From the NCBI RefSeq assembly GCF_013315695.1, contig NZ_CP054353.1: a stretch of 64,000 bases of DNA; one strand, written 5' to 3'. Every line of letters begins with the position of its first letter. Within the stretch, counting starts at the first letter, position 1. The notes beneath the pieces were generated by a model. That model saw only the letters and a program-made list of their open reading frames with translations, did no database searches and was not told where the DNA came from. Of this stretch, positions 21,424 through 41,883 are shown one piece after another. This DNA is from Escherichia coli (GTDB taxonomy: Bacteria > Pseudomonadota > Gammaproteobacteria > Enterobacterales > Enterobacteriaceae). A program made the position numbers and the translations under genes.

Positions 21424-21873
21424 ATGGGTATCATAGCGCAAAATAAAATCAGTTCATTGGGCATGCTGTTCGGTGCCATCGCTTTAATAATGGGGATTAT
21501 CCATTTTTCATTCGGCCCTTTTTCCGCACCACCGCCAACGCTTGAAAGCATCGTGGCGGACAAAACGGCTGAAATTAAAAGAGGTCTTCTCGCCGGAATA
21601 AAAGGCGAAAAAATTACCACCGTGGAGAAAAAAGAGGACGTAGATGTCGATAAAATCCTCGATCAAAGCGGTATCGCACTGGCCATTGCTGCGCTACTTT
21701 GCGCATTTATTGGCGGTATGCGTAAGGAAAATCGCTGGGGCATTCACGGCGCGCTGGTTTTTGGCGGCGGGACGCTGGCTTTCCATACCTTGCTTTTTGG
21801 TATCGGCATCGTGTGCAGCATTTTGCTGATATTCCTTATCTTTTCCTTCCTGACCGGCGGTTCACTGGTTTAA
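21424..21873 (+). CDS. yidI: Inner membrane protein YidI
   Basis: 149-aa membrane protein starting at ATG after AGGAGG RBS (ORF-track start 21289 rejected). Confidence 0.7.
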   Translation: MGIIAQNKISSLGMLFGAIALIMGIIHFSFGPFSAPPPTLESIVADKTAEIKRGLLAGIKGEKITTVEKKEDVDVDKILDQSGIALAIAALLCAFIGGMRKENRWGIHGALVFGGGTLAFHTLLFGIGIVCSILLIFLIFSFLTGGSLV

Positions 21874-21919: not shown

Positions 21920-23405
21920 TCAGAACTTCTGTTTTTTCTCTTCCACCTTCACCCCTTGTGTCGGTAGGCCGGTGTCATAGTCGCGTACCACTGGCGAATA
22001 GCCATCTTGTGGGCGTGGACGAAACGCCCCCATCCAGCGCGGTCGTGCATCTTTACGCCACGGACGCAGACTCCACTGGTAACTGCGGAACGGATCGCGA
22101 ATTTTATCCATGTAATCCAATAAGGCGTCATGCATTTTGCGGCGAACGTCGGCAAAACGGATATCATCTATCAGGTTATGCATTTCATTTGAATCATTAC
22201 GGCGATCGTAAAGTTCATCACTGGTGAAGAGGTTGAGCACCAGTTTAAAGTCATCCGTCACCCAGCAACGCACCGGAATAAAACCGCCAAAGCTGTCATG
22301 CTCAATCTCGTAGCGGTTAAATTCCACCATTACACCGCGTGGCTCTTTCACGGCAAGGATATTTTCCCCCGGCAGAATCTCTGGTTTTTCAATATCTGCC
22401 AGCGCCATCATTGTCGGCAGTAAATCGATATGACTGACTGGCGTATCGACCTGTCGCCGCTCCCCTTGCGGCGAACGGATGATCAGCGGAATGCGGGTGA
22501 TGTCGTCATACATCGCCGCTCCTTTACTGATCAGCTTATGTGCGCCCATCATTTCGCCGTGATCGGAGGTATAAATGACCCACGTATTTTCACGTTGCTC
22601 TGACGTTAAGGCATTGATGACCCGTCCGATTTGGTCATCAACAAAGTCATTGCAGGCAAAATAGAGCGGATGGTGATAAAGCCCGTCATCACCGACTGGC
22701 GATGGCATCGCCTGCGCCCATAAGCGGTGATGTTCCGGTTTGTTCGCCAGGTCATCCTGTGATTTCTCGCCAAGTTCGTAGTAAAAATCAGCGTATTTCT
22801 CTAAATACTCCACCGGACAGGTGAACGGGTGATGCGGCTCATCATACGAAACCACCATCAGGAAGGGTTCCTCGGCGCGCGCGGGCTGTTGCAGAAAATC
22901 TACCGCCCGATTGCTGATGCGGTGCGCCCAGGTGAAGGTTTCGTCGATATGGTTCGCCTGTAAATCCTCAACGCTGTTTAGGCCATTGCGCCACAGGCTG
23001 ATCTCTTTTTCCGTCAGTTCGCTAAGGTAGTTCGCCCCATCGAACCAGTAATCAGCGTCCCACTCCGGCGGACACTCGCCAGTGCCGAAATAGTCATGAC
23101 CGTCGAGATGCCATTTGCCGATGTAACAGGTGTGATAGCCCGCATCCTTAAAGTAGCGTCCCATAGTGGAGATGTTTTTGCCCGGCGCGACGTTGTTGGT
23201 CCACGGGCCGGACTGGTTAGCGTAGATACCGGTAAACAGCCCGGCGCGCGCTGGTGTACAAACCGGTGAACAGGTGTAGGCGGAATTAAAGCGAATACTT
23301 TCCACTATCAATATTTTGCGTATTCAGCGGCTTACCGCTATAGCAACCGACCATATTGGTGGCCTGGGTATCGGTCATGATGAACAGAAAATTGGGGCGT
23401 TTCAT
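21920..23405 (-). pseudogene. yidJ: Sulfatase YidJ, reading frame interrupted near 23286-23311
   Basis: ATG at 23405 (ATGA overlap with yidK stop) opens a 39-codon frame MKRPNFLFIMTDTQATNMVGCYSGKPLNTQNIDSGKYSL* with a sulfatase N-terminus; the rest of the sulfatase (ESIRFNSAYTCSPVCTPARAG..., C-x-P-x-R signature) continues in another frame to 21920. Confidence 0.6.
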
Positions 23406-25117
23406 AGGCTATCCTTCGCGTCGGGAGTAAAGGTTACGGCTGGGTCGTGACGATGCCGCCAGCTGTCAAAAATCAGGTAGACAATCACTACGGCAGCGAT
23501 GAAATAACTGATCATCGCTAACCAGCGCGTACCGTAGCCGCCGAATTCAGCCAGCCCGGCATAGACGCCAATCATAGCGAACAGGATGCCAATTGACGCG
23601 ATCTTGACGTTTTTCCACGGTTTCATGTCCACCGCAAACGCATCTTTGAAGGTGAACGGCGTGGCGCGCGGTTTGATAAAACCGATCACCAGCATCACGA
23701 CCACGTTGATGCAGAACGTACAGGCCAGCACATAGAGGAAATGGAAGTCGAACTTCACCAGATAGTTGATGGTGATGTAGCTGATTATGCCAATCCCCAT
23801 CGCCACTTTTGCCGCCAGCGCTGGAATGCGCGGGAAGAAAAAGCCCATAATGATGATGGTAACCAGCGGCACGTTGTAAATGCCGTTGAGCTGTTTCATC
23901 CAGCTATACAGCCCCTGCGGCGCGTTGGCGATCCACGGCGCTACCAGCACCGAAACGATGGCGATAAAGAAACCAAATTTGCGCCCGACGGTGACCAGCT
24001 GCTGCGGCTCGGCATTCTGGTTAATGATGCGACGGTAAATACCCATACTGAATAACGTACTGGCGCTATTCAGAAAGCCGTTGAAGGTACTGATCACCGC
24101 ACCAAATAACACCGCGCCGAAGAAACCCACCAGTGGCACTGGCAGAACGTTATTGACCAGCGTCGGGTAGGCCATGTCGGCTTTCGGTAGATCCTGATAC
24201 AGATGAAACGCAATCAACCCTGGCAGCACCAGTACCAGCGGGTCGAGCATTTTCAGCACCGCCGTTAACAGCGCCCCCTTTTGCCCTTCCGCCAGGCTTT
24301 TTGACGCCAGCGTGCGTTGCACGATGCCCTGATTTGTACACCAGTAAAAGGTGTTCACCAGAATCAAACCGGTAAATGCCGCGCCAATCGGCAAGGGATC
24401 GGTCGGGCCACCGACTGAGTTTAATTTCTCGGCGTGAACGGTGGTGAGTTGCTCAATGCCCTGCATAAAGCTGCCCTTGCCCATCGCGATCAGGCCAAAT
24501 ATCGGCACCATCAACCCGCCAATAACCAGCCCAATACCGTTGATGGAGTCCGCCACTGCCATTGCGCGCAGTCCGCCGATCACCGCATACAAAATTCCCG
24601 CCAGACCAAGCAAAATTACCAATAGCCAGATAGCCGCACCGTGAGAAATCTGTAGCGATTCCCCGACGTGAAACAGGCTGTTGAGCGCCAACGCGCCGGA
24701 GTAGAGAACAATCGGCAGAAAGCAGACGCCGGTGGCAATGAGGAAGCAGAAGTCGATGATAATACGCGTCGTTTTATCATAACGTTCCTCCAGAAAATCG
24801 GGGATGGTGGCAATGCCGCGCTTCAGATAGCGCGGTAAAAAGATTAGCGCGAGGAAGATCAGCGTCACTGCAGAGGTGACTTCCCAGCCCATCACCGACA
24901 TGCCGCTTTTGTAGGCCTGCCCGGAAAGGCCGACCAGTTGTTCCGTGGAAAGGTTGGTTAGCATTAACGAAGCGGCAATAACCGGCGCTTTTAGTGAACG
25001 TCCGGCAAGAAAATAGCCTTGTTGCGATCCGGTATCTGTTTTACGGACCTTCCACCAGGTGATGATCGCCACCAGCAGCGTAAAACCGACAAAACTCAAG
25101 ATTTGTAACGAATTCAT
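23402..25117 (-). CDS. yidK: Sodium:solute symporter family transporter YidK
   Basis: 571-aa multi-TM SSF-type protein upstream of and translationally coupled to yidJ. Confidence 0.8.
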   Translation of the reverse strand: MNSLQILSFVGFTLLVAIITWWKVRKTDTGSQQGYFLAGRSLKAPVIAASLMLTNLSTEQLVGLSGQAYKSGMSVMGWEVTSAVTLIFLALIFLPRYLKRGIATIPDFLEERYDKTTRIIIDFCFLIATGVCFLPIVLYSGALALNSLFHVGESLQISHGAAIWLLVILLGLAGILYAVIGGLRAMAVADSINGIGLVIGGLMVPIFGLIAMGKGSFMQGIEQLTTVHAEKLNSVGGPTDPLPIGAAFTGLILVNTFYWCTNQGIVQRTLASKSLAEGQKGALLTAVLKMLDPLVLVLPGLIAFHLYQDLPKADMAYPTLVNNVLPVPLVGFFGAVLFGAVISTFNGFLNSASTLFSMGIYRRIINQNAEPQQLVTVGRKFGFFIAIVSVLVAPWIANAPQGLYSWMKQLNGIYNVPLVTIIIMGFFFPRIPALAAKVAMGIGIISYITINYLVKFDFHFLYVLACTFCINVVVMLVIGFIKPRATPFTFKDAFAVDMKPWKNVKIASIGILFAMIGVYAGLAEFGGYGTRWLAMISYFIAAVVIVYLIFDSWRHRHDPAVTFTPDAKDSL

Positions 25118-25283
25118 CTCATAGCCCTTATTTATGTTTATGTCCCGGACGCATGAATATAGGGAGAGGTAAAATGCGTCGGGTCAGGCAGTCAGATTCT
25201 TAAAATACAAACATCGTATCCCTGAACGGATTGTTTTCTGTTAAGTTCAGGTTGTGAGCATAATTCGCCGGAGGGATATTAAA

Positions 25284-29112
<3,829 letters not shown>

Positions 29113-29407: not shown

Positions 29408-29695
29408 ATGATCTACAAAAGCATTGCGGAGCGGTTAAGAATTCGACTTAACTCCGCGGATTTCACGCTAAACAGCCTTCTTCCCGGTGAAAAAAAGCTG
29501 GCGGAAGAGTTTGCGGTATCGCGGATGACCATCCGTAAAGACATTGACCTGCTGGTAGCGTGGGGGCTGGTGGTCCGCCGCCACGGTAGCGGCACTTACC
29601 TGGTGCGCAAAGATGTACTGCATCAAACCGCCAGCCTGACCGGGCTGGTGGAGGTGTTAAAACGCCAGGGAAAAACGGTCACCAGCCAGGTGTAA
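29408..29695 (+). pseudogene. yidP: GntR-family regulator YidP, 5' fragment truncated by IS4
   Basis: MIYKSIAERLRIRLNSADFTLNSLLPGEKKLAEEFAVSRMTIRKDIDLL... (GntR winged HTH) ends after about 96 codons at a stop supplied by the IS4 terminus. Confidence 0.8.
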
Positions 29696-31118
29696 TGCCA
29701 GTCAGTTAAGCAACTGACTGGCTCTTTTTCGGGGCTGTGGGGTATTTCCAGGGCCTCTCCTTTACCACTCTCGGGAAGGCCCTTTCCCTTCTTGTCGGTA
29801 ATTTCACAAGTTGTCCCATACTTGCAAGATCGCGCATCAGCTCCGGTATACGTCCCGGTGAAGCGCCCTGCAATGTCATCAGCATTCTCATCACCATTCC
29901 GCATGATTCTGAGAAACTCAGTTGATTCGGCCAGTAACCTTTCAGATGTTCCGCCATTTTAATCATCTGATATCTCACCAGATTATAAGCCAGTAAGACA
30001 CCCCACAGCTCTTGCTCCACAAGCTCCGGTTTTTTACTTCTCAGCGTCAGCCTGCTCAGTTGCATCGTCTGTTTTATCTCCCTGTATCCCAGTTCGATTT
30101 CCCAGCGATGACTGTACAGATCCGCCATTTCTCCTCCGGGGAAGCGCATGGCGTCCGTCATCGACGTCAGCAGATGGCAGACTTTTCCTTTGCGCGTCAC
30201 GGTCAGCAGGCGGGCTGTCACTTCATTTCCCAGTCCCGGCCACTTTTTTCGTGCCTGCGGGCTGGTTTTCAGCTTCACCAGATGATCGCCTTTACCCAGT
30301 TTTCTGATCTCTTCATATTGCGCTCCCTTTCTGAGAGGTATCATCCAGTGGCGGTGTTCTCCCGCCAGGCTCCAGGCATTTAACAGTCCCAGTGAGTAAT
30401 AACCTTTATCCATTAACGTCAGAGTGTTATCGCCGGTTTGTTCTATAAGTTGCTCAGCAAGCTCATTTTCGCTGTTCTTCATCGTGCCGAAGGCTGCAGC
30501 CGTCAGCAGATGGCTGGTCAGTTCCATCTGGCAGACCATTTTGACCTGCGGGTAGAGCGCCGGGTTCCCGGCATGTGTCTGGCGGGGGAAGGCTGCATCG
30601 TTCTCTGGTGTATCCGGTGTGCGCCAGAACACACCATCGATGGCCAGCAGGGTCAGGCCGCACCAGTGCGGATGCGGCGTGGCGTTATGCCAGAGCTGCG
30701 CTGTTTTCGTGAACACGCGGCGGACAGCCTCACTTCCCAGGCGCTGGCGGGCCTGAATAACGGCACTGGGGGCAACGAAGGGGCGATTGCCCGGCAGCAT
30801 GATGTCCAGGCGATTCACAATCTGGTGAAGAGGTTCTTTACGCTCAAGCGCCATGCCAACAATACACCAGACCATCATTTCGAGGGGAAGACGGCGCTTG
30901 CGTAGCGTTACAGTACCTGATTCGGCAAGGCAACGAGAGATGAGTTCGGGGTCGAGGTAATCCCCCAGAGAAGTCAGTGGGTTACGCAGAGAATCGTAAC
31001 GGGATACCAGATCAAGAGCCTGTCCAATGTGCATAAAAAAATCCGGAAACAAGTGAGCGTTTCCGGATTCTTACACAGCCACTGGATCGGTCAACTGATC
31101 CTTAACTGATCGGCATTA
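29693..31118 (-). mobile_element. Insertion sequence IS4 (1426 bp)
   Basis: Terminal inverted repeats TAATGCCAGTCAGTTAAG (29693) and TAATGCCGATCAGTTAAG (reverse complement, ending 31118); encloses the IS4 transposase; flanking sequences ACCAGCCAGGTG and CCCCCCTTTGAG are not a direct duplication. Confidence 0.9.
29706..31034 (-). CDS. insG: IS4 transposase
   Basis: Translation [41 protein letters not shown]... recognised as IS4 transposase (DDE family), about 442 aa. Confidence 0.9.
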
Positions 31119-31207
31119 CCCCCCTTTGAGACTATTTTAGCCACCAGCAAGAAACGTCTATACTCGCAATTTACGCAGAACTTTTGACGAAAGGACGCCA
31201 CTTCATT

Positions 31208-34153: not shown

Positions 34154-35146
34154 TTACAGCAGAGAAGGGACGCTCTCGCGAACAGCAGCTGGCCATACAC
34201 CACACTGAACCTGGCCGATATGTGGCAGTTGCAGCAGCAGCATGGTCAAACGAGACTGCCCGATACCGCCGCCGATGGTCTGCGGCATTTCACCGCGCAG
34301 CAGCGCCTGATGCCACTCCAGCTCCAGGCGATCTTCGTCACCGGTCAGCGCCAGCTGATGCTTCAGCGTGTCGGCATCCACGCGGATCCCCATGGAAGAA
34401 AGCTCAAACGCATCTTCCAGTACCGGGTTCCATACCAGAATATCGCCGTTCAGACCCGCATGGCCCAGCTCTGACGGGGTGCTCCAGTCATCATAATCCG
34501 GTGCGCGCACGTCATGGCGATGACCATCGCTCAGCTTGCCGCCAATCCCGACCAGGAATACCGCGCCAAGATCTTTCGCAATCGCCCGCTCACGCCCTTT
34601 GGCATCGAGCTCCGGATAACGAGACAGTAACTCCTGGCTGTGTACGAAGTGGATCTGATCCGGCAGGAACGGAGCCAGGCCAAACTCTTCGCTAACCGCA
34701 GCTTCGGTTGCTTTAATTCCCTCCCAGATCGCCTCTACCGTGCTTTTCAGAGTCGAGAATTGACGCTCGCCGTCGCCCATTACGCGTTCCCAGTCCCACT
34801 GGTCAACATAGACCGAGTGCAGCGGGGAAAGACGGTCTTCATCGGGGCGAAGGGCTTTCATGTGCGTGTACAGCCCTTCGCCCGCGCTGAAGTCGTGTTG
34901 CCCTAAGGTCTGACGTTTCCACTTCGCCAGTGAATGAACCACTTCGAACTGGGCATCAGGCAGAGCTTTCACTTTTACCTGCACCGCTTTTTCACAGCCC
35001 GACAAGTTATCCTGCGTGCCATCCCCCACACGGCTAAGAATCGGCGCCTGGACTTCGATCAGCCCCAGACGTTCTTCCAGTTGACGAGAAAAGTGAGATT
35101 TCACGAAGCTAATTTGGCGTTGTTTGGCAATGTAAGCGGTTTTCAT
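34154..35146 (-). CDS. asnA: Aspartate-ammonia ligase (asparagine synthetase A)
   Basis: 330 aa, translation [50 protein letters not shown]... Confidence 0.93.
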
Positions 35147-35845: not shown

Positions 35846-36289
35846 ATGGCAGATATCACTCTTATCAGCGGCAGCACCCTCGGCGGTGCCGAATATGTAG
35901 CAGAACACCTGGCTGAAAAGCTGGAAGAGGCGGGTTTTACCACCGAAACGCTGCACGGTCCGCTGTTGGAAGATTTATCTGCCTCTGGGATCTGGCTGGT
36001 TATCAGCTCAACCCACGGTGCCGGAGATATTCCGGACAACCTTTCTCCTTTCTATGAAGCATTGCAGAAACAGAAGCCCGATCTTTCTGCGGTCCGCTTT
36101 GGCGCAATCGGTATTGGTAGTCGTGAATATGACACCTTTTGTGGGGCTATTGATAAACTCGAGGCTGAACTCAAAAATTCCGGTGCAAAACAGACGGGCG
36201 AAACACTGAAGATCAACATTCTTGATCACGACATTCCGGAAGATCCGGCAGAAGAATGGCTGGGATCGTGGATTAATTTACTCAAATAA
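35846..36289 (+). CDS. mioC: Flavodoxin-like protein MioC
   Basis: 147 aa, translation MADITLISGSTLGGAEYVAEHLAEKLEEAGF...; adjacent to oriC. Confidence 0.92.
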   Translation: MADITLISGSTLGGAEYVAEHLAEKLEEAGFTTETLHGPLLEDLSASGIWLVISSTHGAGDIPDNLSPFYEALQKQKPDLSAVRFGAIGIGSREYDTFCGAIDKLEAELKNSGAKQTGETLKINILDHDIPEDPAEEWLGSWINLLK

Positions 36290-36303
36290 GTATACAGATC
36301 GTG

Positions 36304-36579
36304 CGATCCACTGTGGATAACTCTGTCAGGAAGCTTGGATCAACCGGTAGTTATCCAAAGAACAACGGTTGTTCAGTTTTTGAGTTGTGTATAACCCCTC
36401 ATTCTGATCCCAGCTTATACTGTCCAGGATCACCGATCATTCACAGTTAATGATCCTTTCCAGGTTGTTGATCTTAAAAGCCGGATCCTTGTTATCCACA
36501 GGGCAGTGCGATCCTAATAAGAGATCACAATAGAACAGATCTCTAAATAAATAGATCTTCTTTTTAACACCCAGGATCC
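36304..36579. other. oriC: Chromosomal replication origin oriC
   Basis: Between mioC and mnmG: DnaA boxes TGTGGATAA (36312-36320) and TTATCCACA (36488-36496), dense GATC (Dam/SeqA) sites, and three AT-rich 13-mers (CTAATAAGAGATC, AATAGAACAGATC, AAATAAATAGATC) forming the unwinding element at 36510-36560. Confidence 0.9.
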
Positions 36580-36667
36580 CAGGTCTTTCTCAAGCCGACA
36601 AAGTTGAGTAGAATCCACGGCCCGGGCTTCAATCCATTTTCATACCGCGTTATGCGAGGCAATCACC

Positions 36668-38557
36668 ATGTTTTATCCGGATCCTTTTGACGTCATCATC
36701 ATTGGCGGGGGTCATGCAGGCACCGAGGCCGCGATGGCCGCGGCGCGTATGGGTCAACAGACTCTGCTTTTGACACACAATATCGACACTCTGGGGCAGA
36801 TGAGCTGCAACCCGGCGATCGGCGGTATTGGGAAGGGACATCTGGTAAAAGAAGTGGATGCACTCGGCGGTCTGATGGCGAAAGCGATCGATCAGGCGGG
36901 TATCCAGTTTAGGATACTAAACGCAAGCAAAGGACCGGCGGTTCGCGCTACCCGAGCTCAGGCAGATCGTGTGCTCTACCGTCAGGCGGTACGTACGGCG
37001 CTGGAGAACCAACCGAACCTGATGATCTTCCAGCAGGCGGTTGAAGATCTTATTGTCGAAAACGATCGCGTGGTCGGTGCCGTTACCCAAATGGGACTGA
37101 AGTTCCGTGCCAAAGCTGTCGTGCTCACCGTTGGAACGTTCCTCGACGGTAAAATTCATATCGGTCTGGATAATTACAGCGGTGGCCGTGCTGGTGATCC
37201 GCCGTCCATTCCGCTTTCTCGCCGTTTGCGTGAACTGCCGCTGCGCGTTGGTCGTCTGAAAACCGGGACACCACCGCGTATTGATGCTCGAACCATCGAC
37301 TTTAGCGTACTGGCGCAACAGCATGGCGATAACCCAATGCCGGTATTCTCGTTTATGGGCAATGCGTCCCAGCATCCCCAGCAGGTGCCGTGTTATATCA
37401 CTCATACCAACGAGAAAACCCATGATGTGATCCGCAGTAACCTCGATCGTAGCCCAATGTACGCAGGGGTGATCGAAGGTGTCGGCCCACGCTACTGCCC
37501 GTCGATCGAAGACAAAGTCATGCGCTTCGCCGACAGAAATCAGCATCAGATCTTCCTTGAACCGGAAGGGCTGACCTCAAACGAAATTTATCCGAACGGT
37601 ATCTCCACCAGCCTGCCGTTCGATGTGCAGATGCAAATCGTCCGCTCCATGCAGGGGATGGAAAACGCAAAGATCGTGCGTCCGGGTTATGCCATTGAGT
37701 ATGACTTCTTCGATCCACGCGACCTGAAACCGACGCTGGAGAGCAAGTTTATCCAGGGGCTGTTCTTTGCTGGTCAGATTAACGGCACTACCGGTTACGA
37801 AGAAGCCGCTGCGCAAGGTTTGCTGGCTGGTCTTAACGCTGCCCGTCTGTCTGCTGACAAAGAAGGTTGGGCTCCGGCGCGTTCTCAGGCGTATCTCGGC
37901 GTACTGGTTGATGACCTGTGCACTTTAGGAACCAAAGAACCGTATCGTATGTTTACTTCGCGCGCAGAATATCGTCTGATGCTGCGCGAAGATAATGCGG
38001 ATCTGCGTTTGACTGAAATCGGTCGTGAACTGGGCCTGGTGGATGACGAACGTTGGGCGCGCTTTAACGAGAAACTTGAGAATATCGAGCGTGAGCGTCA
38101 GCGTCTGAAATCGACCTGGGTAACCCCGTCGGCGGAAGCTGCAGCCGACGTGAATGCTCACCTGACTGCGCCACTTTCCCGTGAAGCCAGTGGTGAAGAT
38201 CTGCTGCGTCGTCCGGAAATGACTTATGAAAAATTAACCACGCTGACGCCGTTTTCCCCTGCGTTGACAGACGAACAGGCGGCGGAACAGGTTGAGATTC
38301 AGGTTAAATACGAAGGTTATATCGCGCGCCAGCAAGATGAGATCGAAAAGCAACTGCGTAACGAGAACACCCTGCTACCAGCAACGCTGGATTACCGCCA
38401 GGTATCCGGTCTTTCTAACGAAGTGATCGCCAAACTTAACGATCACAAACCGGCCTCTATCGGTCAGGCTTCGCGTATTTCTGGCGTCACGCCTGCGGCC
38501 ATCTCCATTCTGCTGGTGTGGCTGAAAAAACAGGGTATGCTGCGTCGTAGCGCATAA
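36668..38557 (+). CDS. mnmG: tRNA uridine 5-carboxymethylaminomethyl modification enzyme MnmG (GidA)
   Basis: 629 aa, FAD-binding motif [16 protein letters not shown], recognised as MnmG. Confidence 0.95.
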
Positions 38558-39244: not shown

Positions 39245-39860
39245 TTTTTATCAAAAAAATCATAAAAAATTGACCGGTTAGACTGTTAACAACAACCAGG
39301 TTTTCTACTGATATAACTGGTTACATTTAACGCCACGTTCACTCTTTTGCATCAACAAAGTAACGTGGCTTTTTTTGGTAAGCAGAAAATAAGTCATAAG
39401 TGAAAATATCAGTCTGCTAAAAATCGGCGCTAAGAATCATCATTGGCTGTTAAAACATTATTAAAAATGTCAATGGGTGGTTTTTGTTGTGTAAATGTCA
39501 TTTATTAAAACAGTATCTGTTTTTAGACTGAAATATCATAAACTTGCAAAGGCATCATTTGCCAAGTAAATAAATATGCTGTGCGCGAACATGCTCAATA
39601 TGTGATCTGAAGCACGCTTTATCACCAGTGTTTACGCGTTATTTACAGTTTTTCATGATCGAACAGGGTTTGCAGAAAAGTCGCAATTGTATGCACTGGA
39701 AAAATATTTAAACATTTATTCACCTTTTGGCTACTTATTGTTTGAAATCACGGGGGCGCACCGTATAATTTGACCGCTTTTTGATGCTTGACTCTAAGCC
39801 TTAAAGAAAGTTTTATACGACACGCGGCATACCTCGAAGGGAGCAGGAGTGAAAAACGTG

Positions 39861-41065
<1,205 letters not shown>

Positions 41066-41093
41066 TTTACCAACACTACTACGTTTTAACTGA

Positions 41094-41368
<275 letters not shown>

Positions 41369-41412
41369 TAAAGAGCAATATCAGAACGTTAACTAAATAG
41401 AGGCATTGTGCT

Positions 41413-41883
41413 GTGAATCTTAACGCAACAATCCTCGGCCAGGCCATCGCGTTTGTCCTGTTCGTTCTGTTCTGCATGAAGTACGTATGGCCGCCATTAA
41501 TGGCAGCCATCGAAAAACGTCAAAAAGAAATTGCTGACGGCCTTGCTTCCGCAGAACGAGCACATAAGGACCTTGACCTTGCAAAGGCCAGCGCGACCGA
41601 CCAGCTGAAAAAAGCGAAAGCGGAAGCCCAGGTAATCATCGAGCAGGCGAACAAACGCCGCTCGCAGATTCTGGACGAAGCTAAAGCTGAAGCAGAGCAG
41701 GAACGTACTAAAATCGTGGCCCAGGCGCAGGCGGAAATTGAAGCCGAGCGTAAACGTGCCCGTGAAGAGCTGCGTAAGCAAGTTGCTATCCTGGCTGTTG
41801 CTGGCGCCGAGAAGATCATCGAACGTTCCGTGGATGAAGCTGCTAACAGCGACATCGTGGATAAACTTGTCGCTGAACTGTAA
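41413..41883 (+). CDS. atpF: F0F1 ATP synthase subunit b
   Basis: 156 aa, N-terminal TM helix then long charged helix. Confidence 0.95.

Follow-up and report, generated by a model that had tools for sequence, protein, structure and literature searches.

We analysed a stretch of 64,000 nucleotides of Escherichia coli DNA (contig NZ_CP054353.1, assembly GCF_013315695.1), which is referred to here as the window. It contains the yidJ locus in the gene order emrD-yidF-yidG-yidH-yidI-yidJ-yidK-yidL, and it shares with E. coli yidJ (b3678), a putative cytoplasmic Cys-type S1 sulfatase, this synteny, the Pfam Sulfatase and SGSH_C domains and the CTPAR motif. In the near-identical genomes of AF3 and MSB1_4I, the annotated yidJ and the genes around it line up with this region, with only one to two SNPs in 31 kb, which identifies the gene as the yidJ ortholog. 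It differs from the intact gene, which encodes 497 aa, in being divided into a 39-aa stub and a remnant of 461 or 463 aa. The start of yidJ is the ATG within ATGA, which shares bases with the yidK stop codon, and yidK and yidJ are therefore translationally coupled. The convergent gene yidI is present in the window, in K-12 and in the relatives AF3 and MSB1_4I; it is absent in E. coli 7/2, where yidH directly follows yidJ. In the papers that we checked, the gene is described only as a 'putative sulfatase/phosphatase', and one study names it as enriched in the gastrointestinal strains belonging to cryptic clade II. Our literature search on YidJ function found no activity or substrate beyond that description.

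Features of the yidJ locus in the window (a slash marks the deletion point)
Feature	Position	Strand	Details
yidI, inner-membrane protein, convergent with yidJ	21424-21873	+	
yidJ remnant ORF	21920-23311	-	+1 frame; Pfam PF00884 positions 35-301 and SGSH_C
Formylglycine signature C-T-P-A-R	23246-23260	-	TGT ACA CCA GCG CGC, read from the sequence
yidJ 5' stub ORF	23286-23405	-	34 native residues, GKYSL and TAA; carries Asp12
Deletion junction	23303-23304	-	GATAGT/GGAAAG; 8 bases CTGGCGGC missing; alignment with 7/2 and K-12
yidK, solute:sodium symporter, 571 aa, intact	23402-25117	-	ORF; PF00474 SSF, 171.9 bits; annotated in relatives
yidL, AraC-family regulator, divergent, intact	25284-26177	+	ORF 25254-26177; 297 aa in relatives; HTH_AraC/HTH_18

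The initial annotation had described a frame of 39 codons that begins at the ATG of the ATGA overlap and ends at the TAA, with the rest of the sulfatase, including CSPVCTPAR, open in another frame. Reading of the minus strand together with the ORF listing gave just this arrangement. The stub runs from the ATG at 23405-23403 to the TAA at 23288-23286, and its translation is MKRPNFLFIMTDTQATNMVGCYSGKPLNTQNIDSGKYSL, in which the last five residues, GKYSL, come from out-of-frame codons. Asp12 is encoded by the GAT at 23372-23370, within FIMTDTQ. The remnant has 463 aa when read from the TTG at 23311 and 461 aa from the GTG at 23305, a codon that was made by the deletion junction itself. It contains the CSPVCTPAR segment, and its formylglycine cysteine corresponds to Cys52 of intact YidJ. 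The overlap of the two frames, put earlier at about 25 nt, measures 26 nt (23311-23286).

We then compared both products with the Pfam Sulfatase profile (PF00884), which has a curated cut-off of 25 bits. The remnant matched profile positions 35-301 with 207.5 bits and was followed by SGSH_C, while the stub alone matched positions 1-31 with 18.7 bits, which is under the cut-off. The two matches abut, and the stub and remnant are therefore consecutive pieces of one sulfatase domain.

The split had been put down to a small indel where the frames overlap, and the nucleotide alignment with yidJ of E. coli 7/2 and K-12 identified it as exactly one 8-base deletion. Where the window reads GATAGT directly followed by GGAAAG, the intact genes read GATAGT-CTGGCGGC-GGAA(A/G)G. 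The gap is clean, it lies inside the overlap of the frames, and its placement is unambiguous. The deletion removes the codons for Leu35, Ala36 and Ala37 plus two bases, so that five out-of-frame codons are read before translation stops. No direct repeat or microhomology was found by eye in the bases flanking the deletion. We also considered whether the intact genes might simply use another, validated start site. This was rejected, since they hold eight more bases and begin at the same yidK-coupled ATG.

A 331-nt query across the site was searched against 5,426 complete RefSeq E. coli genomes and matched 5,114 of them, with 5,067 full-length matches. Every full-length match among the matches listed covered 339 nt, whereas the window has 331 nt here. 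Identity reached 97.6% at most, a value that results from the 8-column gap alone, and none of the 5,067 came to 99%. When a 60-mer centred on the junction was used, it matched 1,608 genomes, all of them at 88.2% (60/68) and none exactly, and the deletion junction was thus not found in any complete RefSeq E. coli genome. The initial annotation would have had to be abandoned if intact genes of other strains shared this sequence and used a different start; they do not share it. The junction 30-mer occurs once in the window, where none would be expected by chance.

The closest complete genomes were those of AF3, from a blood culture in the UK, and MSB1_4I, from a rectal swab in Australia, and positions 1-31119 of the window are colinear with both. 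Over these 31,119 bases we observed two SNPs against AF3 and one SNP against MSB1_4I, and the 8-base gap was the sole gap. Outside the gap, yidJ is identical to that of both relatives, and yidK, yidL, yidF, yidG, yidH and yidI are the same as well. Since these relatives differ from the window by one or two SNPs plus the gap and have kept the eight bases, the deletion is the derived state and very recent.

The absence of the junction from the complete genomes, and the near identity of these relatives apart from the gap and one or two SNPs, could also be taken to mean that the genome holds an intact yidJ and that eight bases were lost in the consensus through a local sequencing or assembly error. 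Loss of eight bases outside a homopolymer is, however, not a typical platform error. Moreover, an exact-sequence look-up in the Logan and ENA assemblies turned up both proteins unchanged, the 39-aa stub in 13 contigs and the 461-aa remnant read from GTG in 10, and a positional look-up in public assemblies placed the number of remnant-bearing contigs at about 19. These came from unrelated samples and assemblers, and they showed the same junction and the same stub and remnant proteins. We fetched eight of the loci, each under its own sample accession (SRR28299565, ERR4229482, ERR12454647, SRR32733216, SRR15832847, ERZ28581537, ERZ24594165 and ERZ27305040; at least ERZ28581537 bears the label of a metagenome scaffold). 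The identical 30-nt junction was present in 8 of 8, and the loci were 99.9-100% identical to the window, with 0-7 SNPs. Two of them, L006 and L008, which belong to different projects, have an extra yidK SNP in common. A further SNP shared by two deletion-bearing loci speaks against an error, and it indicates that the allele sits in a clade that is diversifying in nature.

One locus (L007) carried the deletion together with seven SNPs, all of them in the yidL and emrD flanks, while its yidK-yidJ core was identical to the window. Its source is a metagenome contig with 6x coverage. We read these SNPs as probably reflecting a mixed-strain consensus or recombination in the flanks, and not a recurrence of the lesion. 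A recurrent deletion or hotspot had no support here, since the SNPs were confined to the flanks.

The initial annotation had left two choices, a strain-specific pseudogene or a local sequence error. The pseudogene is favoured because the identical junction occurs in independent assemblies from unrelated samples. We regard the error as very improbable, and the allele is not private to this record. With a disrupted reading frame, a derived state and a lesion that extends beyond one assembly, the gene has the features that define a frameshift pseudogene. We consider it highly probable that yidJ is here a recent lineage-specific pseudogene that arose through one 8-base deletion after codon 34.

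The consequences for the protein can be judged from what is known of the family. In S1 sulfatases, an aspartate on the first beta-strand binds the catalytic divalent metal, as do Asp13 of the Pseudomonas arylsulfatase and Asp29 of human ARSA. In the alignment with solved sulfatases, Asp12 of YidJ, which we take to be this N-terminal metal-ligand position, falls on their conserved 'tD', and conservation is seen as well at the L-A-x-E positions that the deletion took away (nid.la.e). The remnant does retain a domain above the Pfam cut-off, though over profile positions 35-301 only, and a C/S-x-P/A-x-R motif in the form C-T-P-A-R. Asp12 and the catalytic cysteine, however, do not lie on one polypeptide, the former being in the stub and the latter in the remnant. 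With its catalytic elements divided between two ORFs, the gene in this form does not qualify as a functional S1 sulfatase.

Ribosomes that start at the native, yidK-coupled ATG would be expected to read 39 codons and stop. The resulting 39-aa stub would carry the N-terminal metal ligand of the first beta-strand, Asp12, and the formylglycine cysteine with the rest of the fold would lie on an ORF that has neither the native start nor a Shine-Dalgarno sequence. An active sulfatase would not be expected from this arrangement, and the allele is most likely null, with loss of the enzymatic function, as judged from knowledge of the family. Polar effects on other genes are not expected, since the yidK-yidJ unit ends with yidJ and yidI is convergent. 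Residue 2 of YidJ aligns with about residue 25 of the solved sulfatases, an offset that could stem from a signal peptide carried by those proteins. In that case YidJ may be cytoplasmic, with a substrate that YidK brings into the cell.

We also evaluated whether the split gene could still be expressed, either by a +1 slip at CUU-UAA-U, which would give a near-full-length protein, or by reinitiation at GTG 23305 or TTG 23311, which would give a truncated one. At the end of the stub the sequence reads TCG CTT TAA T, and a +1 slip from CTT to TTT would continue with AAT TCC GCC and so on, a frame that reads N-S-A-Y-T-C-S-P-V-C-T-P-A-R. The distance from the GTG and TTG codons to the stub stop downstream is 17-23 nt. 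The remnant is also free of additional lesions when compared with AF3 and MSB1_4I, which fits a recent event and, taken alone, would fit retained expression equally well. The slip site is, however, an accident of the deletion, as the intact genes read CGC TTT AAT at this place, and UAA-U is an efficient termination context in E. coli. The slipped product would be three residues shorter, with GKYSL in place of the conserved LAAESIRF. As for reinitiation, no Shine-Dalgarno sequence was seen in the sequence upstream of either TTG 23311 or GTG 23305, and a reinitiated product would be without strand beta-1 and Asp12. A start at TTG 23311, which the initial annotation had raised, is therefore possible in principle only, lacking the Shine-Dalgarno sequence and yielding a protein without the N-terminal metal-binding strand. 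We consider expression of the split gene by any of these routes to be hardly likely.

The slip site bears a likeness to that of prfB (RF2), CUU-UGA-C, since in both a P-site CUU is followed by a stop codon and a +1 slip to UUU enters a long frame. The likeness is one of resemblance only. The yidJ site comes from a recent deletion and is not conserved among the orthologs, which are in frame; the arrangement was seen in one recent clade only. Its stop is UAA-U and not the weak UGA-C, and the sole Shine-Dalgarno-like element, GGAAAG, is weak and mis-spaced, lying 6 nt upstream and not the 3 nt of a programmed +1 frameshift. If a few ribosomes did slip at CUU-UAA-U, the near-full-length YidJ would keep both Asp12 and the formylglycine cysteine, and the allele would be leaky and not null; we rate this as more improbable still.

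When we examined yidJ in other public assemblies, a second, independent frameshift was observed, in which the A4 run in ACGCAAAATATT has become A5 (L013-L015, locus positions about 1590-1600). The stub of this allele is MKRPNFLFVMTDTQATNMVGCYSGKPLNTQKY, of 32 aa (...NTQKY), and the called remnant has 414 aa. The allele was present on at least 24 contigs, in a K-12-like background. Like the deletion in the window, it is a frameshift within the first 35 codons of yidJ that parts the N-terminal strand from the catalytic core. It differs in being a single added A in a homopolymer, at another position and in the K-12-like background, and it is the sole allele that we verified as independent of the window lesion. 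Short YidJ stubs were also found clustered, but they were discounted as a sign of a hotspot, being mostly contig-end partials, and length-based clustering favours this stretch.

A 41-aa yidJ stub (...NIDTWFQPITS) was seen at the end of one contig (L016, 2597-2630), with 30 foreign bases after GATA. An IS insertion was rejected for this junction, as the 30 bases match a BCCT-family transporter gene that about 1,546 E. coli genomes have at another place. Since the junction coincides with the contig end, it may represent a real rearrangement or a chimeric contig.

The persistence of the 8-base deletion in a clade sampled across many unrelated datasets, together with the independent 5' frameshift (A4 to A5) in at least one other lineage, could suggest that inactivation of yidJ was selected in a human-associated clone and did not spread by drift. 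The same lesion, however, has no parallel occurrence, and yidK, yidL and yidF remain intact. The locus is also kept in most of the complete genomes of the collection, and the clustering of stubs is partly an artefact of length selection in the protein clustering. We consider such adaptive loss unlikely, although less so than an error or continued expression. It is compatible with the pseudogene reading, as it concerns the spread of the allele and not its identity.

The window also differs from its relatives away from yidJ. Colinearity with AF3 and MSB1_4I ends at 31119, where an IS4 element (29692-31119) has its right end. To the right of IS4, a stretch of 34.3 kb (ravA-viaA-asnA-asnC-mioC-(oriC)-mnmG-rsmG-atp-glmUS-lpf-pst-phoU) is 99.99% identical to MSB1_4I, in which the ravA-to-phoU stretch adjoins a second, oppositely oriented IS4 at a distance of about 74 kb. 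In both MSB1_4I and AF3, IS4 copy 1 lies within a GntR-family regulator gene, and copy 2 is inverted and lies between kup and ravA; the window joins the yid/glv side straight to ravA-viaA-asnA-mioC-oriC-mnmG-atp. The target duplication of the window IS4 is a hybrid, with CACCAGCCAGGTG on the left, as in copy 1, and CCCCCCTTTGAG on the right, as in copy 2. Such a hybrid is the mark left by homologous recombination between two inverted copies of IS4, and unless the assembly is misjoined here, it implies an IS4-mediated inversion of about 74 kb with oriC inside. The inverted segment presumably includes dnaA as well, going by the gene order of K-12. The IS4 junction of the window was not found in any complete RefSeq E. 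coli genome. We expect oriC at about 36289-36668, in the mioC-mnmG intergenic region and some 5 kb from the inversion junction; it was placed by homology only (to positions 8929-9308 of L017), as a 13-mer regular expression, which was too strict a pattern, gave no match. An inversion would shift the position of oriC relative to the rest of the chromosome.

Within the right-hand 34.3 kb we observed three SNPs against MSB1_4I (at 34673, 49699 and 53722) and a sole indel, in a poly-A tract at 61081-61089 that is A9 in the window and A8 in MSB1_4I. The tract falls close to the 5' end of a type III effector-like gene, which the MSB1_4I annotation already records as frameshifted. In the closest relatives (L003 and L004, positions 39807-41732, outside the part colinear with the window), IS1 interrupts dgoD (galactonate dehydratase) and IS4 interrupts the GntR-family regulator beside the glv-like PTS genes. 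The lineage accumulates IS-mediated gene disruptions in the neighbourhood of the yidJ lesion.

Together, these observations have led us to regard the split yidJ as an ordinary lineage-specific pseudogene of an accessory, uncharacterised gene, of a kind that is well understood. The deletion allele is already present in public assemblies, where automatic callers have split the locus into a 39-aa 'hypothetical' protein and a 461-aa 'sulfatase'. The correct annotation is a frameshifted yidJ pseudogene and not two genes. The finding has little importance beyond annotation, though the junction GATAGT/GGAAAG is a handy clade marker for the lineage. The several independent natural lesions of yidJ, while not proof, are consistent with the gene being dispensable in at least some E. 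coli lifestyles.
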